Source of the DNA: a virus
Taxonomy: Duplodnaviria; Heunggongvirae; Uroviricota; Caudoviricetes
Length of the DNA stretch: 35,326 bases
Virus record (IMG/VR): IMGVR_UViG_2778261588_000004
Coordinates: 1 to 35,326 of that record
Strand: one strand, 5' to 3'
Shown here in pieces: positions 3,242 through 31,302 of the stretch. Position 1 is the first letter of the stretch, and the number at the start of each line of letters is the position of its first letter. A model generated the notes under the pieces. It saw nothing but the letters and a program-made list of their open reading frames with translations, made no database searches and was not told the origin of the DNA. Position numbers and translations under genes: made by a program.

Positions 3242-4072
3242 ACCGGACTCCTCCTGCGATCCCTTCTGATACTGTCATCAGCATTACGTCATCCTCCGTC
3301 ATGTCCGCCACATCCGGGGAAGCGGGGATAACTTCATTCCCGTCCGGGCCAAAGCGGACGCCTCCGGCAAGCCCTGCCGCTTTCTGCATCAGCACATCAT
3401 CTTCAGGCTCTTCGTCAGCCTCGCGCCGGTTCAGCAGACTGAAATCCAGCGGATGCATATCCGGATCGCTGAAAAACAGGCTGAGTACGGTGTACGTCAG
3501 CCCGGAAAAGTGCATATCCAGCAGAACATCATGAAAATAATGGGTACTGTAAAAGCGGTGCCAGTCGGCATACTCTGTGGATGACATCCCGGCAAGCATG
3601 GCGCGCCAGTCGGGTCGCCCCATCTCACGCGCCAGTTTCAGGGCAAAACTCAGCTCACCGTCGAACACTTTCCCGCAGAAACAGGCTCTGCTGGCCCGGC
3701 GTCATCTGCCTGTTCAGGTGCATCATTCACAACAAACTCAGACATACCGGACAGACGCATTACCACATTTTCAGCCTGAGCAATTGCCTCTGTGGGCCAG
3801 GTGGTAAGCACTTCCTGCTCAATCTGTTTAACGGCTTCATTCATGGACGGCATCTTTGTCTTCTGCGGATGGCTATGCCACAGGGACATCGCCACCAGAA
3901 AAGCACCGGTTCTGACAAGATCTTCCACGCTCACCTGTCGATTGAGACTGGATCCCGCCTGTTCTGCCTGTCGTTTCAGCAGGGCGAGATGCTCAATTCG
4001 CTGCAGGGCTGACAGTTCAGAAAGCGTGACGCTCACACCGTTATATTCAAATGATTCGGTTTTCAGGAACAT
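3234..4072 (-). CDS. GT: Tail assembly chaperone GT fusion made by programmed -1 ribosomal frameshift
   Basis: Heptamer G GGA AAG (minus sense, plus coords 3674..3668) lies in the G zero frame; the -1 frame stays open to 3234 and its stop overlaps the H start. Confidence 0.8.
3650..4072 (-). CDS. G: Tail assembly chaperone G
   Basis: 140-aa ORF beginning MFLKTESFE... and ending ...PVSAGKCSTVS as lambda G; slippery heptamer at its 3' end. Confidence 0.9.
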   Translation of the reverse strand: MFLKTESFEYNGVSVTLSELSALQRIEHLALLKRQAEQAGSSLNRQVSVEDLVRTGAFLVAMSLWHSHPQKTKMPSMNEAVKQIEQEVLTTWPTEAIAQAENVVMRLSGMSEFVVNDAPEQADDAGPAEPVSAGKCSTVS

Positions 4073-18203: not shown

Positions 18204-18235
18204 CCGCCCGTGCCTCCCAGCGCGGGCTTTTTTAT
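18204..18235 (+). terminator. Weak plus-strand hairpin plus T-run (half of a back-to-back terminator pair)
   Basis: GCCCG (18206..18210) / CGGGC (18223..18227) with 12-nt loop, then TTTTTT (18228..18233). Confidence 0.3.
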
Positions 18236-18262
18236 CCAAAAAATACCCCTCCGGAGAGGGGT
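18236..18262 (-). terminator. Intrinsic terminator in the late-operon leader (tR'-like candidate)
   Basis: Minus sense ACCCCTC-TCCG-GAGGGGT followed by ATTTTTTGG; ~480 nt upstream of the holin start. Confidence 0.5.
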
Positions 18263-18552
18263 ATCATACAAGGGGATGACCATAATGCATGGTGCCGGGT
18301 GCCTCCCGGTGAGTCCGGCATCAGCATACGAACCCGCGATTATCCCAGAACTGACTGCTGATTCGCCCCGCCGCTTAGGGGGATTCACCATGCGTTTTTT
18401 TATTTACAAACTCTTCGCCAGACAAACAACCATTAACTGGCTGAATTGTGAGGTATTTCAATTTTTAGAAAACTGACCAACCTCCGCTTATACGCCGGGC
18501 ATGGAGCGGATACAAAAAAGCCCCGCAAAAGCAGATCAGAAGGATTCGTTGT

Positions 18553-26706: not shown

Positions 26707-27045
26707 CTATTTCCCTGAATTTACGACGAAACTGTTCGAGCGGACTGAAGCATTCATGTTCATAGCCTTCACGGAGGTAGATAACCCGTTGTGTTTCCGG
26801 CTCCCAACGAATGACTCTGACGGGCACTCCGTAGTGATCTTTGAACCAGCGGTTAACTTGTCGCAAAGGACTGTCTCCTTCTGCCGGTTGAAATCACCCA
26901 CAGCCCACTCTGCAAAGCTGTGGGTTACAATTTCCCTGTCACCTAGTACATTCACTGCATAGCAATACTCCACCTTCGCTTTTCCACCCGGTACAGGAAG
27001 CGCAATCAGTTGCGAACGACGGTAGAGTGTTGTTAAACTGTTCAT
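26707..27045 (-). CDS. Hypothetical protein between the CII-like gene and the initiator; frame ambiguous
   Basis: ATG overlaps the CII-like stop (ATGA); a second frame (26654..26866, TTG start with AAGGAG 8 nt upstream) is also open and looks more protein-like in its distal part. Confidence 0.4.
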
Positions 27046-27626
27046 GCGTTAGTTTCTCCACGGACACAAAACGCCACGACGCCCGGAGCTGCACACTCGC
27101 GGGCGTCACTCTTTTCTGAAGCGCAGAAGATTTTGTAGAACAGTGCTGCATGCTCCTGGAGCTTCGAAATTGACAGATACAACTCATCATTAATTGCTGT
27201 CTGTTCATGTGGCTCCACTACCCCATCTTCGATTGCCGAACGAATCTGCTTTGAGTAACTCCCGATCTGTTCAATGACTTCCAGTAGACGTTGGTTGATA
27301 TCAGCGTTCTCTACTTCCTCAATTTCAGGAAGTGATACAAACACCCCACCAGCAGACTGTGCGACAGCATCCGCAATGTGATGTGTACTAGCCGCACGCT
27401 GTAAAACCATTGCCCATCCCAACGGAAAAAACTGATCACCATCGGCACGAAGGCGGTTGAATAAAGCGTTCTCTGTTACATCCAGCCACTCAGCTGCTTC
27501 AGCGTAACCACCCGGCAACGCCGCGATAGTTTTTCTGACAGCTTTCACGTACCACTCAGGTTGTTTTTCTACTTTCCAGTGATGCTTACCCACGGCTATC
27601 TCCTTAAAACTGTGGTTACTTTCCAT
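27042..27626 (-). CDS. CII-like regulatory protein (CP76-type, tentative)
   Basis: 194 aa, immediately downstream of and overlapping the Cro-like gene, where cII sits in lambdoid phages; family from memory. Confidence 0.55.
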
Positions 27627-27864
27627 CTGATAAGTCTTTAATCTTTTGAAAAATATCTGGACGTAATTTTTCTTTTGATACGCCAGTGGTCATTTCAATG
27701 AATATCGAGAGCTTTGCAGGGGGACGCTTTTCTCTGTTCAACCAGTTCCAGACATGTTGTTGCTTTACTAAACGACCACTGCTGGCTGTGAGCTTCCGAG
27801 CCAATTCTGATTGACCACCAGCCAGAGCGATTGCCTCTGATAAGGCTAATTGCTCAGGTGTCAT
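27616..27864 (-). CDS. cro: Cro-like HTH repressor
   Basis: 82 aa; divergent from cI across the operator region; AGGAG 6 nt upstream of ATG; HTH segment SELARKLTASSGRLVKQQHVWNWLN. Confidence 0.65.
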   Translation of the reverse strand: MTPEQLALSEAIALAGGQSELARKLTASSGRLVKQQHVWNWLNREKRPPAKLSIFIEMTTGVSKEKLRPDIFQKIKDLSDGK

Positions 27865-27883
27865 AGCTTTCTCCTATCTGTAA

Positions 27884-27975
27884 GTAGTAAAGTTGTTGAT
27901 AACTTCGATTATACAACTACAACAACTTTTATCACAACTTTTAGATGTTGGAAAGCTAAAACATAAAGTTGTAAC
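27884..27975. promoter_or_regulatory. OR: OR operator/promoter region, including pR
   Basis: Repeated GTTGT/ACAAC half-site motifs (AAGTTGTTGATAACTT, ACAACTACAACAACTTT, ACAACTTTTAGATGTTG, AAAGTTGTAACC); minus-sense TTGTGA-18-TATAAT (TATAAT = plus 27908..27913) reads into cro. Confidence 0.6.
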
Positions 27976-28001
27976 CTCAATAAAAACGAGGGGGATATGT
28001 T

Positions 28002-28688
28002 GTGAAAACATTGGCAGAAAGACTAAAAAGCGAAAGAGAAAAAGCAGGAATGAGTCAGGCGCAACTAGCTGAAAAAATTGGGCTTTCACAACAATCCGTA
28101 GCAAAAATCGAGAATGGAGAAACTCAACAGCCTCGGAAAATTAAAGAGATTGCTAAAGTGTTAGGGGTTTCTCAAAAGTGGTTGCAATTGGGCATTGAGG
28201 ATAACGCGTCTTTCCCAGACCTTGTTGTAAAGGAGGCTGAAAGTACAACATTAGATCCTGACATTTTTGCAAACATTCCTGTCCTAGATGTCGAGTTATC
28301 AGCGGGTAATGGATGTTTGGCTGAAATAGTTGAATCAACTGTAGACTGGTTCCCGCTAAGAAGGATTGATTTAAGAAAAGCTGGTGTATGTGTCTCCAAT
28401 GCAAAGATCGTAAAAATTTGGGGTAATAGTTTACTACCTGTACTTAACAATGGAGATTTTGTTGCTGTTGATGTTTCCCAAACAGTTCCTATTCGTGATG
28501 GGGATCTTTATGCTATACGTGATGGCGTATTACTTAGAGTTAAAATATTGATCAATTTACCTGACGGTGGTCTGATTCTAAGAAGTTTCAATAAAGATGA
28601 GTATCCAGATGAAATACTCACCTTCGAAGATAGGCGTTCCAGAATTCACGTTATAGGTAGAGTATTCTGGTCATCGCGCACTTGGTAA
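28002..28688 (+). CDS. cI: CI-type prophage repressor (HTH plus S24 LexA-like autopeptidase domain)
   Basis: GTG start with GAGGGGG 8 nt upstream; N-terminal HTH (MSQAQLAEKIGLSQQSVAKIENGE); Ala-Gly cleavage site (ELSAGNG); C-terminal S24 fold with candidate Ser (WGNSLLP) and Lys (LLRVK). Confidence 0.88.
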   Translation: MKTLAERLKSEREKAGMSQAQLAEKIGLSQQSVAKIENGETQQPRKIKEIAKVLGVSQKWLQLGIEDNASFPDLVVKEAESTTLDPDIFANIPVLDVELSAGNGCLAEIVESTVDWFPLRRIDLRKAGVCVSNAKIVKIWGNSLLPVLNNGDFVAVDVSQTVPIRDGDLYAIRDGVLLRVKILINLPDGGLILRSFNKDEYPDEILTFEDRRSRIHVIGRVFWSSRTW

Positions 28689-28861
28689 TGCATCAAAAAA
28701 CATTCCTTCAGAAATTTAGTTACCATTATTACCCGCCTTTTCAATCTTCCTCCCGTGATTTGAGAGTTTCCAATCACGGAAGGAAAGTGTCCATTGTGTA
28801 ATTAAAAGCGCATCGTCCATACAACCTCCTTTTTTGATAACCCTTGCCCTCATTTCACATC

Positions 28862-28920
28862 CGTCAAAACCACATAAAGTTGTTGACAACAACCAAAACA
28901 ACAACTAGATTACAACTTAA
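28862..28920 (+). promoter_or_regulatory. OL: OL operator / pL promoter
   Basis: Same half-site family as OR: near-perfect 15-bp palindrome GTTGTTGACAACAAC, ACAACAACT, CAACTTAAAGATGTTG; perfect -35 TTGACA (28873..28878), 17-nt spacer, -10 TAGATT (28896..28901), pointing away from cI. Confidence 0.6.
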
Positions 28921-29002
28921 AGATGTTGCAGTAACGAACAGGCAGGACGCCCACGAAGTAGCCGCCGGTGGCGTATGAATGACCGGGTGATTCGTTAGCA
29001 AC

Positions 29003-29030
29003 AAAAAAGCGCCCAACAGGACGCTTAGCT
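29003..29030 (-). terminator. Intrinsic terminator after the orphan immunity-region gene
   Basis: Minus sense AGCGTCC-TGTT-GGGCGCT (one G-U pair) followed by TTTTTTGTTG; 35-60 nt downstream of the stop at 29065. Confidence 0.5.
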
Positions 29031-29064
29031 CTTTAACAATCTGGATATCCACAACAGTAGTAAT

Positions 29065-29556
29065 CTACAGATTGCCGTTAAGTTTTCTGGACAACTCCTC
29101 AATGGATGGAGGCGATACGTAATCCGGATTTTTATTCATCAGAAACTTATTTTCACAGTGGAGGCACCTGCTTTTATGAAAAAGCTCATCTTCGCTAACC
29201 GGGAATGGTTGAAGTATCGATACTATCTTTTGTCCAAAACATTTTGGGCAAAGATGCATGGTTATGCTGCCACCGTTCACGATTACCTCCTTCGAGTATA
29301 CAAAAGTACCCGACTCAAGTTGGTTAAGGATATAGCCTTCCGTCTGAGCCTCAAAGTTTTCGAATTCTGCAATTTTAGCTTTGAGAGAAGCATTTATTTC
29401 TTGATAAGAGCCCACCAGTTCAACGAGAGACACGCATTCGCGCTGAATAGACGCAAGCTTTGAGTTCAGCTCACCAATAGCCGCATTTACTTCAGCTTGA
29501 GTTTTTGCCTCGTTCATTAGTTTTGCAATCTGGGCTGTTTCACGAATAGCCGTCAT
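29065..29556 (-). CDS. Hypothetical protein: N-terminal coiled coil plus C-terminal CxxC...CxxC zinc ribbon
   Basis: 163 aa from the Met at 29556 (the track ORF reaches 29844 through GC-rich DNA); heptad-like N-terminus; CPKC ... CLHC pair; AT-rich relative to neighbours; antisense to pL; own terminator. Confidence 0.55.
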   Translation of the reverse strand: MTAIRETAQIAKLMNEAKTQAEVNAAIGELNSKLASIQRECVSLVELVGSYQEINASLKAKIAEFENFEAQTEGYILNQLESGTFVYSKEVIVNGGSITMHLCPKCFGQKIVSILQPFPVSEDELFHKSRCLHCENKFLMNKNPDYVSPPSIEELSRKLNGNL

Positions 29557-29591
29557 TGCTGCCGTTAATTCAGCGATCACATTGAATACTC

Positions 29592-29650
29592 TTATTGTTG
29601 TTGGGGATATCCAGATTAACCGAATCCTTGTTGTTGGGGAATAACCAGGT
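29592..29650. repeat. Direct repeat pair upstream of the orphan gene
   Basis: TTGTTGTTGGGGATATCCAG (from ~29594) and TTGTTGTTGGGGAATAACCAG (from ~29629), two ~20-bp copies about 35 bp apart. Confidence 0.55.
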
Positions 29651-29865
29651 CCACCTCGCCTGATGTGGCTAAAAGCAGGCACATAACAGCTAAGTATTTT
29701 CAACCAGAGAGAATCCTTAGCGTTGTGGTGAATGCGGCTCAGCGCACGCGGGTTAAGGTTGAGGCTGACAGTCGACCTTCTGTGGATACCCACCCGCCTG
29801 GTGTGCAACCTTCGCCAGGCACCGGGAGGCACCCGGCACCACAACTTTATGCTGTGTGTAGTCCT

Positions 29866-29912
29866 GGCGGTACCAGCTTGTACCCTTGCTTCCGGCTGGT
29901 ACCGTCCTTTTT
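29866..29912 (+). terminator. Intrinsic terminator-like hairpin in the early-left leader
   Basis: Stem 29866..29877 / 29895..29906 (core GGTACCAGC/GCTGGTACC), 17-nt loop, then CTTTTT (29907..29912). Confidence 0.45.
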
Positions 29913-30001
29913 ACAAAACAGAGAAGAGCATCACCGGACGACGGGCTCATAACCCAATCCATCCGGGCGGCTGCCACCGCAGGTGTTCTTCTCTGTTTTG
30001 T
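29913..30001 (+). other. Perfect 15-bp inverted repeat enclosing a 59-nt GC-rich segment (candidate structured RNA element)
   Basis: ACAAAACAGAGAAGA (29913..29927) and TCTTCTCTGTTTTGT (29987..30001) are exact reverse complements; the enclosed segment has further internal pairings; ~50 nt upstream of the first early-left gene. Confidence 0.45.
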
Positions 30002-30049
30002 GGAGAAACCAACCGACCTTGCAGGGTCGATATGATGAGGAGCAGCAAA

Positions 30050-30412
30050 ATGGCTAGCGAACGCAGTACTGATGTGCAGGCATTTATCGGGGAGCTGGAC
30101 GGCGGCGTATTTGAAACCAAAATCGGCGCAGTTCTCAGTGAGGTCGCTTCCGGTGTGATGAACACGAAAACCAAAGGGAAGGTCTCACTCAATCTGGAAA
30201 TCGAACCATTTGATGAGAACCGTGTGAAAATCAAACACAAACTCTCATATGTTCGCCCGACTAACCGCGGGAAAATTTCCGAAGAAGACACCACCGAAAC
30301 GCCGATGTATGTCAATCGCGGTGGTCGCCTGACTATTCTGCAGGAAGACCAGGGACAATTACTGACTCTTGCCGGTGAACCTGACGGAAAACTCCGCGCA
30401 GCAGGTCGTTAA
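30050..30412 (+). CDS. YfdP-like early-left protein (120 aa)
   Basis: ATG at 30050 with AGGAG 7 nt upstream; the track ORF reaches back to 29732 through the structured region; first gene of a CPS-53-like yfdPQRST-type operon. Confidence 0.55.
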   Translation: MASERSTDVQAFIGELDGGVFETKIGAVLSEVASGVMNTKTKGKVSLNLEIEPFDENRVKIKHKLSYVRPTNRGKISEEDTTETPMYVNRGGRLTILQEDQGQLLTLAGEPDGKLRAAGR

Positions 30413-30477
30413 TATCGTTCGTAATAAACTGATTATTTATCTCATCACTGAATATCTTTATATAGTGAGGACTTATT

Positions 30478-31302
30478 ATGTCTCAGAACTTAGACGCAAC
30501 CGCAATTAATCAAATCCATGCCCTTATTTCTGCTCAGGGTGTTAATGAAATTATCAGTAAGATTGGTGCCGATGCTGTGGCATTGCCTGAGAATTTCCGC
30601 ATTCATGATCTGGAAAAATTTAATTTAAATCGCTTCCGTTTCCGTGGTGCGCTTTCCACTGCCAGTATCGATGACTTTACCCGTTATTCTAAAGATCTTG
30701 CAGATGAAGGCACCCGCTGCTTTATCGATGCCGATAATATGCGTGCCGTCAGTGTGCTTAACCTGGGTACTATTGATGAACCAGGTCACGCAGATAACAC
30801 CGCCACTCTCAAACTGAAAAAGACAGCACCGTTCTCTGCTCTGTTGTCTGTTAACGGCGAGCGTAACTCCCAGAAGTCACTGGCAGAATGGATTGAAGAC
30901 TGGGCCGACTACCTTGTGGGCTTTGATGCTAATGGTGACGCCATTCAGGCAACCAAAGCGGCTGCGGCGATCCGTAAAATCACAATTGAAGCGAACCAGA
31001 CCGCTGATTTTGAAGACAATGACTTCAGCGGCAAACGCTCCCTGATGGAGTCTGTCGAAGCGAAAACCAAAGACATTATGCCAGTGGCATTTGAATTTAA
31101 ATGCGTTCCGTTTGAAGGCCTGAAAGAACGTCCGTTTAAATTACGCCTCAGCATTATCACTGGCGATCGTCCTGTACTGGTTCTGCGCATTATTCAGTTG
31201 GAAGCATTGCAGGAAGAAATGGCTAACGAATTTCGTGATCTGCTTGTTGAGAAATTCAAAGACAGCAAAGTAGAAACCTTTATTGGTACTTTCACCGCCT
31301 GA
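30478..31302 (+). CDS. YfdQ-like protein (DUF2303-type)
   Basis: 274-aa ORF with GTGAGGA ahead of the ATG; size and position match yfdQ of CPS-53; family from memory. Confidence 0.65.

Follow-up and report, generated by a model that had tools for sequence, protein, structure and literature searches.

A promoter-less STnc100/PasD-like RNA in the untranslated early-left leader of a lambdoid prophage

Introduction

The window, a 35,326-nt stretch of phage DNA, contains an early-left operon whose first gene, a yfdP-like gene, lies behind about 400 nt of GC-rich sequence. An earlier note on this DNA described in these 400 nt several open frames, a terminator-like hairpin, and a perfect inverted repeat, and found no N-like gene upstream. 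It proposed either a cis-acting antitermination element, comparable in principle to the HK022 put RNAs, or an independent small RNA or riboregulator. The locus thus raises two questions: what this stretch is, and what allows transcription to continue past it into the early-left genes.

A GC-rich leader without a protein-coding gene

The following reading frames lie in and behind the GC-rich stretch:

29665 to 29952, plus strand: open reading frame, no convincing start
29732 to 30412, plus strand: open reading frame in frame with yfdP, no convincing start
29886 to 30035, plus strand: open reading frame, no convincing start
29753 to 29977, minus strand: open reading frame, no convincing start
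30050 to 30412, plus strand: yfdP-like gene (phrog_204), first early-left gene (PHROG match)

The GC content of 29700-29999 is 58-60% (0.575-0.595 in 200-nt windows) versus 0.40-0.45 on both flanks. Both the GC-rich character of the stretch and the presence of several open frames upstream of the yfdP-like gene, none with a convincing start, are as first described.

The leader region is matched in about 3,000 Escherichia coli genomes. In RefSeq, the ortholog in prophage e14 is named 'protein YmfH', and in other genomes hypothetical proteins are annotated over the region. Together with frame 29732-30412, which runs open into yfdP, these annotations speak for a protein-coding gene, either YmfH-like or an N-terminal extension of YfdP. 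Such a gene is extremely improbable. Open frames are expected at 58-60% GC, and the one overlapping frame compared with PHROG families (29665-29952, plus strand) gave zero matches. No CDS is annotated at the leader position in SfV, ST64B, and phiES15. The conserved core described below varies in length among homologs from 116 to 139 nt, with differences that are not multiples of three; indels between homologs break the YmfH-type frame, an in-frame intrinsic terminator used in vivo in e14 interrupts it, and the substitutions compensate one another within RNA helices. What precedes the yfdP-like gene in this GC-rich stretch is a structured, non-coding RNA leader.

A divergent member of the STnc100/PasD family

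The first part of the leader comprises four elements:

29689 to 29721, plus strand: hairpin P1 (GCUAAG...CUUAGC), ahead of the core (folding, homologs)
29722 to 29845, plus strand: STnc100-like core (Rfam RF02076, folds, model R2)
29846 to 29865, plus strand: conserved linker UUUAUGCUGUGUGUAGUCCU, kept in e14, phiES15, and loci L200 and L206
29866 to 29912, plus strand: intrinsic terminator with a 13-bp stem, a 15-17-nt loop, and a C followed by U5 (folding)

A covariance-model scan combined with RNA folding of the leader yielded a match to Rfam family RF02076, this terminator, and the fold of the inverted repeat behind it. The Rfam match (29692-29915) covers the full length of the model (positions 1-206 of 206) with a significant E-value (42.4 bits, E = 1.8e-7 in a 1.5-kb search), at a score below the gathering score of 47. 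Copies at the equivalent place in other phages, here called left copies, also score below 47 (phiES15, 40.6 bits; SfV, 39.5 bits; ST64B, 35.1 bits), and the e14 copy is not reported at E < 0.01. Because of these sub-threshold scores, standard annotation misses left copies and calls open reading frames, such as ymfH, in their place.

STnc100, also known as EcOnc27 or sRNA103, is an Hfq-binding small RNA encoded downstream of stx2B (PMC12711010). The prophage small RNAs PasD1 and PasD2 are related to it, PasD having been validated by northern blot (Zhu et al. 2026 bioRxiv). For both EcOnc27 and PasD, the literature reports binding to Hfq and trans targets (PMC12711010; Zhu et al. 2026 bioRxiv). 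A canonical family member is present elsewhere in the window:

18234 to 18422, minus strand: late-operon STnc100 copy, upstream of the holin gene (Rfam, 115 bits, E = 1e-24)

The core of the left copy consists, in this order, of the 9-bp closing helix P2 (GUUGUGGUG/CACCACAAC), AAU, hairpin a (5 bp, a 3' bulge, and the pentaloop UCAGC), a variable middle domain made of P3 and hairpins b-d, and hairpin e (CCGGG-AGGCA-CCCGG), which stacks directly on the 3' strand of P2. Support for the core comes from homology and covariation, folding stability being uninformative in GC-rich sequence. The core alone folds no better than shuffled sequences (z = -1.6 for the plus strand and -1.2 for the minus strand), and thermodynamic stability was dropped as evidence.

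Model R2, built only from 17 left-type cores, recovers late-type copies at full length with 38-65 bits (54.1 bits for the late copy of the window). MAFFT alignment of the whole core misaligns the variable middle domain; covariation was counted on the well-anchored helices only, and P1 and P3 were compared by eye and by single-sequence folds. When left and late copies are taken together, 94.8% of the cells of P2, a, and e are paired, and both partners have changed in 13 of 19 pairs; none of 500 shuffles did as well. The alignment was fitted to the model, which favors structure. Compensatory changes thus occur in related prophages, both in these helices and in those of the inverted repeat, and pairing is conserved. 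P1 pairing, too, is kept where the sequence differs (GAUAAGAG/CUCUUAUC in ST64B, AUGAAGCGCAUU/AAUGCGCUUCAU in phiES15), and the equivalents of P1 in L062, L167, and L128 are 17-20-bp stems.

The segment 29689-29912 is a divergent, promoter-less member of the STnc100/PasD family. It shares with the family the closing helix, the GGUGAAU junction, hairpin a with its UNNGC-type pentaloop and 3' bulge, and an invariant 22-nt block CACCGGGAGGCACCCGGCACCA that comprises hairpin e and the 3' strand of P2. This block and the junction are identical in both window copies and across 111 unique IMG/VR cores. The AGGCA loop of hairpin e is kept on other stems as well (CCUGG/CCAGG in L200, GGUGG/CCACC in L206). 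Further shared traits are the intrinsic terminator after the core, occurrence in lambdoid prophages, and co-orientation with a long antiterminated operon. In contrast to the canonical RNAs, the left copy lacks a promoter and is found between cI and the first delayed-early gene, not between Q/tR' and the lysis genes. The stem of its hairpin a is GCGGC and not CCCCC, and its middle domain is rebuilt, with one or two hairpins inside P3 in most left-type copies; left copies score 35-42 bits against a gathering score of 47.

The very high conservation of hairpin e and GGUGAAU suggests a surface that binds a protein or RNA polymerase (RNAP) rather than a base-pairing seed.

Several other identities were considered for parts of the core and rejected. 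GGUGAAU does not qualify as a sigma-dependent pause element, having no A at position 2 of the -10 hexamer and pairing with CACC. The pairing of hairpin d (CGCCAGG) with the foot of the terminator (CCUGGCG) is possible in the window and e14, is absent from ST64B and phiES15, and was treated as chance. An ARAGORN scan for tRNA and tmRNA was empty, and such an identity was abandoned; the tRNA-like topology of the core is an analogy only, the loop of hairpin e having 5 nt.

Left and late copies

Two further features of the window bear on the promoters of the two copies:

28883 to 28911, plus strand: pL-like sigma-70 promoter TTGACA-17-TAGATT (promoter scan, 10/12 matches)
about 21075 to 20980, minus strand: Q-dependent late cassette TTGCAT-17-TAATAT, AACGAT, and terminator 20999-20980, directly after Q

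Left copies always lie between cI and the first early-left gene, on a constant strand. They were found in SfV, SfIV, ST64B, phiES15, a Klebsiella phage, and e14, whose ortholog is 90% identical to the window module; the first gene behind them varies (yfdP, yfdR, kil-gam, or xis-int). The promoter scan gave no promoter-like site near 29650-29720, and pL is the sole plus-strand one in 27500-31000. Transcription from the best e14 candidate, AAGACA-17-TATTTT, would start inside P1, and Reg-Seq revealed no constitutive start site for e14 ymfH (PMC12132413).

Late copies, in contrast, are located between Q/tR' and the lysis genes and have their own terminator and their own promoter, TTGACA-N17-TAAATT, about 7 nt before P2. 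The late window copy follows this pattern, with a promoter-like site, a terminator (18265-18242, minus strand), and a location 9.5 kb from pR, before the lysis genes. The idea that STnc100 is the pR'-tR' leader used by Q was rejected: a separate pR'-AACGAT-tR' cassette follows Q in the window and in IMG/VR, and late STnc100 sits with its own promoter downstream of tR'. Nothing comparable to a Q-type cassette (pR'-QBE/SDPE-tR') was found at 29650-29720.

An unlikely explanation of the left copies is that a late-region STnc100 gene was captured by the left arm, lost its promoter, and persists as a recombination relic, in which only the terminator matters, as an insulator or tL, and the core is decaying. 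Mosaic junctions at the flanks of the module (query positions 38, 92, and 306 of the homology search), partial degenerate copies of the P1/P2 junction at 29589-29606 and 29622-29639, and lesions in hairpin e of e14 (CCGGG-GGCA-CCCGA) are in line with this. However, left-type cores form a widespread and diverse subfamily in phages of Escherichia/Shigella, Salmonella, Klebsiella, and Cronobacter; almost every one of these cores has an intact hairpin e. Pairing across these cores is maintained by compensatory changes, which points to purifying selection on the fold and not to decay.

The terminator and the in vivo use of its e14 ortholog

The plus-strand terminator-like hairpin with a U-run that had been noticed at 29866-29912 is confirmed by folding (-23 kcal/mol, z = -4.0 versus dinucleotide shuffles). 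Its arms are perfect over 10 bp (29868-29877 and 29895-29904), form 13 pairs when folded, and are followed by UUUUU at 29908-29912. A simple terminator scan missed it for the sole reason that its loop has 17 nt. A hairpin with a U-run, on different stems, occupies the same position in ST64B, phiES15, L200, L206, and L215. Group-B left-type copies have neither the terminator nor the inverted repeat; therefore, termination is not universal to the module.

Published K-12 Term-seq data, which concern the e14 ortholog and not the window prophage, contain a 3' end at 1201195 (minus strand), the last U of the e14 U-run, that is not flagged as Rho-dependent. A second 3' end, at 1201257 (minus strand), follows UUUA 4 nt past P2 and is equivalent to position 29849 of the window. 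In e14, a GC-rich hairpin, a U-run, and a 3' end within that U-run thus coincide, as expected of an intrinsic terminator. With these ends and the STnc100/PasD homology, the small-RNA interpretation of the earlier note essentially holds for 29689-29912. Its 'independent' part does not, as the RNA has no promoter of its own and would be made from the pL transcript.

A structured domain directly upstream of a terminator may also be a regulated attenuator, riboswitch-like or protein-responsive, in which the core responds to a ligand or to a protein of phage or host and the choice between extended P1 and P2 sets termination. In the full-length fold, CAUAAC (29682-29687) extends P1 by pairing with GUUGUG. 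The latter can pair either with CAUAAC or, in P2, with CACAAC; the two pairings are mutually exclusive in the window, and other sequences provide exclusive pairings in phiES15, L167, and L062. The extreme conservation of junction and loop nucleotides is also consistent with sensing. Nevertheless, we consider an attenuator of this kind distinctly unlikely. No pairing between the core and the terminator stem is conserved, the 7-nt complementarity of hairpin d being lost in ST64B and phiES15, and the terminator begins only after a 20-nt linker. Late copies are genes complete in themselves and often far from the downstream open reading frame (130-3357 nt), and the group-B left copies have no terminator to be regulated.

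A second structured RNA before yfdP

Two elements separate the terminator from the yfdP-like gene:

29913 to 30001, plus strand: inverted-repeat RNA element with a 20-bp stem and a three-way junction (folding and covariation)
30002 to 30049, plus strand: conserved 5' UTR of the first early-left gene, GGAGAAAC (sequence, folding)

The perfect 15-bp inverted repeat around a 59-nt segment with internal pairings, as originally noted, proved to be the outer part of a larger fold. Its arms (29913-29937 and 29977-30001) form a stem of 20 bp when G-U pairs are counted, and the three-way junction holds a conserved hairpin GGG-CUCAUAA-CCC. The fold has -45.5 kcal/mol (z = -7.3), and none of 200 shuffles was as stable. 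In an alignment of 18 diverse homologs, pairing is kept in 94.6% of the cells and both partners have changed in 10 of 32 pairs, a result that none of 500 shuffles matched; a U-G wobble kept in 16 of the 18 sequences suggests a plus-strand RNA. Of 93 pL operons with the pL-proximal leader RNA described in the next section, 69 have the 3' arm. The inverted repeat is an RNA element in its own right, with covarying helices.

In the lambda N leader, the RNase III site is a long hairpin just upstream of the ribosome-binding region of the first gene. The inverted repeat resembles this site and is possibly a site of RNase III processing as well. The yfdP 5' UTR behind it contains a small hairpin (30014-30029) and the Shine-Dalgarno sequence GAGGAG (30037-30042). 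In many loci, also where terminator and inverted repeat are missing, GUGGAG(A/U)AA and a hairpin stand before the first gene.

The region between pL and the leader

The pL-proximal region, upstream of 29650, contains the following features:

28931 to 29002, plus strand: conserved structured pL-proximal leader RNA, 72 nt (covariation, model R1)
29028 to 29039, plus strand: rrn-type boxA GCUCUUUAACAA, an exact match with a candidate function
29065 to 29520, minus strand: convergent moron gene of 151 aa, phrog_1244 (PHROG, E = 2.4e-53)

An operator-like palindrome, GTTGTTGACAACAAC (28879-28893), overlaps pL in the sequence. The transcript from pL must cross the moron gene antisense, and this minus-strand gene is the only real one between pL and the terminator. 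No gene, N-like Arg-rich or other, was found on the plus strand of 28912-30049 in the list of open reading frames or with PHROG, in agreement with the earlier observation, and the plus-strand frame 29158-29463 matches no PHROG family. Nor can an N-like assignment be made for the products of e14 ymfJ and SfV orf33, which belong to unrelated PHROGs with function-less annotation. The boxA is the single exact match in the window (0.12 expected with one mismatch allowed) and lies at +88/89 from the pL leader in 21 of 93 related loci. It directly follows a hairpin (29007-29026) that on the minus strand is the terminator of the convergent gene (29026-29007), and a boxB-type pentaloop hairpin is absent after it. 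The system thus differs from lambda nut, having neither an Arg-rich N gene nor an adjacent boxA-boxB site, and its boxA stands behind a hairpin in an rrn-like order.

In the pL-proximal leader RNA, two covarying 5-bp helices surround a 25-nt internal loop that is invariant (CAGGCAGGACGCCCACGAAGUAGCC) and a 12-nt hairpin loop that is conserved. The RNA is present in more than 120 IMG/VR loci; 97.3% of the cells are paired, both partners have changed in 9 of 10 pairs, and none of 500 shuffles did as well. It begins 18-29 nt past the -10 element of promoters of many immunity types, no more than about 10 nt from the transcription start. At 28931-29002, model R1 scores 89 bits, and it finds one copy per phage, with no second 'putR-like' copy after pR. 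This conserved RNA appears to be a better candidate antiterminator than the STnc100-like element.

These observations bear on the put-like antiterminator proposed for the leader element, in which the core would bind its own RNAP and make it resist the terminator at 29866-29912 and later ones. The premise of the proposal stands: N is absent, and transcription from pL meets a terminator. The element is without exception part of the pL operon and precedes the delayed-early genes, and its core is highly conserved and structured, as for an RNA that binds a protein or RNAP. Prophage e14 is not known to carry N or Q. Read-through happens in e14 nonetheless: ymfH, xisE, and intE are all induced after DNA damage, so that xis and int are expressed upon SOS induction (PMC11228462). 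Several lines of indirect evidence speak against the proposal itself, and we regard it as very unlikely. Late paralogs, which share the conserved core and have constitutive-looking promoters, accumulate as RNAs of about 200 nt that end at their own terminators; with a self-sufficient antiterminator, transcription would run on into the lysis genes. In e14, RNA made in vivo ends at the terminator of the copy itself, and some left-type copies are not followed by a terminator. The distance of the element from pL is 0.4-1.1 kb, and in ST64B another terminator-like hairpin precedes it.

Comparison with HK022 leads in the same direction. The likeness consists of an N-less lambdoid phage with a structured early-leader RNA and terminators downstream, and as a functional analogy it fits 28931-29002 better, which starts near the transcription start, as putL does. 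The putL and putR sites, as read from the HK022 record, are two stem-loops of about 70 nt, and neither the core nor the pL leader resembles them in sequence or by model: neither R1 nor R2 gives a significant hit in the HK022 loci L001 and L003. The STnc100-like element further differs in its distance from pL (0.8 kb), its size (about 125-230 nt), and its own functional terminator. The put sites are paired, one after pL and one after pR, and here the pR operon contains no second copy. RNA-based antitermination of the early-left operon may still occur, with 28931-29002, followed by the boxA and like it outside 29650-30050, as the better candidate.

Discussion

Our preferred reading, which we hold to be probable, is that 29650-30050 is an untranslated modular pL leader made of an STnc100-like small RNA and attenuator and a processing hairpin, with read-through set upstream. 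Most transcripts from pL, or reading in, would end at the terminator 29866-29912 or be trimmed to the core; the predicted products are 29683-29912 (about 230 nt) and 29683-29849 (about 167 nt). The module would thereby both attenuate the operon, as a tL-type stop before the delayed-early genes, and yield a small RNA, with a putative role in trans, of the same kind as the late copy (18234-18422) makes from its own promoter. A double-strand-specific, RNase III-type enzyme may cleave 29913-30001 and free the read-through mRNA from the leader just upstream of the yfdP 5' UTR. Read-through into yfdP and beyond would not come from the STnc100-like element; it would most plausibly come from the RNA at 28931-29002, helped here by the boxA.

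Parts of this arrangement have counterparts in lambda. As at tL1/nutL, an intrinsic terminator gates the delayed-early left genes. The pR'-tR' transcripts (lambda 6S RNA, StxS) offer a parallel for a short terminated lambdoid RNA that doubles as a small RNA, but pR'-AACGAT-tR' is a separate unit after Q, STnc100 copies have no sigma-dependent pause element, and the left copy has no promoter. Literature searches on ymfH and on e14 antitermination gave no paper describing the element.

A more general scheme can be put forward tentatively, and we think it rather doubtful. Many N-less lambdoid prophages (e14, SfV/SfIV, ST64B, Klebsiella phage Kp4866-6, and the window phage) may control their early-left operon by RNA only. 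The means would be a conserved 72-nt RNA at the very start of the pL transcript, serving as a processive antiterminator or anti-Rho element unrelated to put, an embedded STnc100-like RNA set free by termination or processing, and a long hairpin at which processing occurs. In that case, the tRNA-like topology and the invariant hairpin e of the STnc100 core would belong to an RNA that binds a protein or RNAP and not to a base-pairing small RNA.

The analysis has consequences for annotation, as what is called e14 ymfH, or 'hypothetical proteins' at this place in other E. coli, is in all likelihood structured RNA that encodes no protein. Within the STnc100/PasD family, the left copies form a second lineage, located in the early-left leader and devoid of promoters, and a single prophage can express this type of RNA from two operons with different timing: the left copy is presumably expressed only after induction, from pL, and the late copy is a stand-alone unit with its own promoter. 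Such expression from two operons constrains ideas on small RNAs linked to pathogenic E. coli. Finally, with three RNA modules defined by coordinates, the gap in our understanding of how SfV-, ST64B-, and e14-type phages express their delayed-early genes without N becomes testable.

The pL operon of the prophage

The window is a lambdoid prophage with the following features around its repressor gene:

27042-27626, minus strand, CII-like gene
27616-27864, minus strand, Cro-like gene
28002-28688, plus strand, cI-like repressor gene
28883-28911, plus strand, strong sigma-70 promoter TTGACA-17-TAGATT overlapping an operator-like palindrome (promoter scan)
28931-29002, plus strand, conserved 72-nt element directly 3' of pL, at the very 5' end of the transcript
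29028-29039, plus strand, exact rrn-type boxA GCUCUUUAACAA on the pL transcript, directly after the hairpin 29007-29026
29065-29520, minus strand, convergent gene 3' of pL (phrog_1244)

The promoter at 28883-28911 is the only plus-strand promoter-like site that the scan found within 27500-31000, and it is taken as pL. From pL, the convergent phrog_1244 gene is followed by the element region and then by the yfdP-, yfdQ- (DUF2303) and yfdR-like genes. The plus strand between pL and the terminator contains no gene, N-like or other.

The features of the element region described in the earlier note were all found again. GC content is 0.575-0.595 at 29700-29999 vs 0.40-0.45 in the flanks, and several frames are open over this stretch, none with family support. 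The terminator-like hairpin 29866-29906 (10 perfect pairs, 13 when extended; z = -4.0) leads into C and U5 (29908-29912). Next come the arms of a perfect 15-bp inverted repeat (29913-29927 and 29987-30001) enclosing 59 nt; the fold is a 20-bp stem topped by a three-way junction (z = -7.3). Further upstream, direct repeats (containing TTGTTGTTGGGG) at 29589-29606 and 29622-29639 on the plus strand resemble the junction between the 3' strand of hairpin P1 and the 5' strand of helix P2 (29711-29728). They seem to be incomplete, vestigial copies of this junction and fall at mosaic junctions (BLAST query positions 38 and 92).

Relationship of the element to STnc100

A covariance-model scan, one of the checks proposed in the earlier note, gave a full-length match of 29692-29915 to Rfam STnc100 (RF02076) with E 1.8e-7; its 42.4 bits fall short of the gathering score, 47. 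STnc100, also known as EcOnc27/sRNA103, is an Hfq-binding sRNA located directly 3' of stx2B (PMC12711010; PMC12370729). It is related to PasD1 and PasD2, abundant Hfq-bound sRNAs of EPEC prophages found near Q and the lysis genes (Zhu, Shabalina and Storz, bioRxiv 10.64898/2026.05.13.724894). The window has a canonical copy of its own in the late region:

18234-18422, minus strand, STnc100 sRNA gene of the canonical type (Rfam, 115 bits), having a promoter-like site and a terminator of its own
~21075-20980, minus strand, late promoter cassette: TTGCAT-17-TAATAT, lambda-identical pause element AACGATGGG and terminator 20999-20980

The cassette directly follows the Q gene (Pfam PF03589). Between it and the lysis genes lie two morons, each with a terminator, and the STnc100 gene sits between a DNA methylase moron and the holin gene. 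Identity of STnc100 with the pR'-tR' transcript was ruled out: in the window and the IMG/VR loci, pR'-AACGAT-tR' directly follows Q and STnc100 is separate beyond it. The late unit has its own promoter of the TTGACA-N17-TAAATT type, ending ~7 nt 5' of P2, and its own terminator. In three IMG/VR loci (L012, L020 and L059), the late region carries three to five STnc100-like units in tandem, spaced roughly 250-500 nt apart.

A 22-nt block, CACCGGGAGGCACCCGGCACCA, is the same in both copies of the window, and so is the GGUGAAU junction. Single-sequence folds give the same architecture in 13 left-type cores (between cI and the first early-left gene) and 4 late-type cores (before the lysis genes): closing helix P2, an AAU junction, hairpin a, a variable middle domain, and hairpin e. 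Hairpin a has a UNNGC pentaloop and a bulge on its 3' side; hairpin e has an AGGCA loop and stacks directly on the P2 3' strand. The stem of hairpin a is GCGGC in left copies vs CCCCC (or CUUUC, CCAUC, CCGG) in others, and that of hairpin e is CCUGG/CCAGG in locus L200 and GGUGG/CCACC in L206, with the loop unchanged. A covariance model trained on left-type cores alone (17 sequences) found late-type copies at full length (38-65 bits), including that of the window (54.1 bits, E 1.7e-9). In a combined alignment of 64 distinct left and late sequences, which was model-fitted and hence biased toward structure, helices P2, a and e are 94.8% paired, with compensatory double changes in 13 of 19 pairs and none of 500 shuffles as good. 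Recovery of the late copies together with covariation of the shared helices means that the element (29689-29912) is a true structural relative of STnc100. The invariant junction, together with hairpin e, resembles a binding surface more than a seed for base pairing. Three traits of the described family are absent from the element: (i) the curated score, (ii) an own promoter, and (iii) the late-region site.

Genomic contexts of STnc100-like elements

A 22-mer scan of IMG/VR yielded at least 120 loci. By flanking genes, the matches listed fall into two contexts, both co-oriented with the neighboring operon: 3' of Q or a methylase gene and 5' of holin and lysis genes, or 3' of cI and 5' of early-left genes. 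The left context also occurs in SfV, SfIV, SfII, ST64B, phiES15, a Klebsiella phage, and e14, irrespective of whether the first left gene is yfdP, yfdR, kil-gam or xis-int. No left copy tested reached the Rfam threshold.

In ST64B, ~230 nt of GC-rich non-coding sequence (L125 2735-2960) separate the pL leader from the STnc100-like element and contain another terminator-like hairpin (GGCGG…CCGCC AGCUUUUU); thus, pL transcription has two terminators to pass there. In the rightward early region of SfV (L002 1226-1414, minus strand) and ST64B (L125 409-597, minus strand), C4 antisense RNA and isrK are adjacent, both over the Rfam threshold; neither occurs in the window.

Transcription and 3' ends

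No own promoter was found in left copies. Immediately 5' of P1, e14 and phiES15 have conserved sequence that reads as a minus-strand extended -10 promoter (TGgTATACT/TGgTATGCT) for the divergent moron, and Reg-Seq did not see a constitutive start site for e14 ymfH (PMC12132413). P1 (29689-29721) covaries: its stem is GCUAAG/CUUAGC in the window, GAUAAGAG/CUCUUAUC in ST64B, 12 bp long in phiES15, and 17-20 bp elsewhere. Hence P1 must be transcribed and, with no own promoter, the RNA arises by transcription coming in from pL upstream. On the plus strand at 29682-29730, CAUAAC (29682-29687) can pair with GUUGUG (29722-29727) to extend P1. As GUUGUG is also the 5' strand of P2, extended P1 and P2 compete; the same competition is possible in phiES15 and in loci L167 and L062.

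The E. coli K-12 e14 module is 90% identical and lies directly 5' of xisE-intE, where it is annotated as a CDS:

L004 (e14) 3576-3887, RefSeq CDS "protein YmfH", spanning the STnc100-like core, terminator and inverted-repeat RNA

Most likely, this CDS is a mis-annotated non-coding RNA. MG1655 Term-seq (Adams et al., 2021, PMC7815308, supplementary file 1) has three 3' ends on the module's strand, read as position 51 of each 61-nt string, a convention verified on sgrS. The first, 1201195, is the last U of the U-run (29912 in the window). The second, 1201257, follows CACCACAACUUUA, 4 nt after the P2 3' strand (29849). The third, 1201423, between GACAGGCAC and AUAACAGCUA, lies just 5' of P1 (29682), at the exact 5' edge of the CAUAAC alternative-pairing segment. 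Rho dependence is "No" for 1201423 and 1201257, the two with a call (PMC7815308, supplementary file 3). The ends at the U-run and core edge indicate that the terminator is used in vivo and that a shorter species stops at the core edge.

These ends bear on the earlier proposal of a put-like cis-acting antiterminator, which is improbable as the role of the element: STnc100-type cores stop in vivo at terminators of their own, the element does not resemble put, and for some copies there is no terminator that would have to be passed. Read-through itself does take place: in e14, DNA damage induces ymfH, xisE, intE and genes beyond (PMC11228462). As e14 is not known to carry N or Q, read-through also occurs without either.

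Candidate antitermination site in the pL-proximal leader

The 72-nt leader 28931-29002 is also present in e14, SfV, ST64B and the Klebsiella phage; in IMG/VR, over 120 loci have it. Its two 5-bp helices (97.3% paired, 9 of 10 pairs double-changed, 0/500 shuffles as good) enclose two loops: an internal one of 25 nt, which is invariant, and a conserved 12-nt hairpin loop. Promoters of many different immunity types precede it; among 89 unique upstream regions, 59 score 9/12 or better. From their -10 hexamer to the start of the element is 18-29 nt, which places this start at approximately +5 to +20 of the transcript. HK022 putL likewise starts close to the transcript 5' end. The leader is single-copy in each phage, is not found after pR, and has no HK022 or Rfam match.

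The hairpin 29007-29026, read on the opposite strand, is the terminator of the convergent gene. Of 93 related loci, 21 have the same boxA module, at position +88/89 relative to the leader. A boxA makes sense here because the RNA leader is ~1.1 kb, untranslated and antisense to a gene, hence Rho-exposed. Given its putL-like position in phages without N, we infer that the 72-nt leader is the best candidate for N-independent antitermination, possibly as a new cis-acting antiterminator or anti-Rho element.

The inverted-repeat element and the modular leader

The 89-nt inverted-repeat element (29913-30001) forms a module by itself. Of 93 leader-carrying pL operons, 69 have its 3' arm, among them 18 that lack the STnc100-like core. 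Across 18 diverse homologs, pairing reaches 94.6% over the 20-bp stem, both inner helices and a third hairpin of variable length; 10 of 32 pairs are double-changed, and none of 500 shuffles is as good. Compensatory changes in related prophages, which the earlier note had suggested looking for, are thus present in both the core and the inverted repeat. A U-G wobble in the stem, kept in 16 of 18 sequences, points to selection on the plus-strand RNA rather than on a DNA palindrome, and the apical motif GACGGGCUCAUAACCCAAUCC hardly varies. A hairpin of this kind acts as P1 before the core in locus L128; in L014 and L052 it comes after the core with no terminator in between. A conserved GUGGAG(A/U)AA always comes next, along with a small hairpin and the first gene's ribosome-binding site. 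Because a 20-bp RNA duplex is a classical RNase III substrate, the hairpin is a candidate RNase III processing site, comparable to that in the lambda N leader.

In summary, the finding of the earlier note is real, and its second interpretation, an independent small RNA or riboregulator, is essentially right for 29689-29912; the RNA is not fully independent, since it has no own promoter and is made by upstream transcription. The element adds a new form, one lacking a promoter, to a known sRNA family. It sits in a modular RNA leader, where it is coupled to a working terminator and to a conserved RNA hairpin that is a module of its own.
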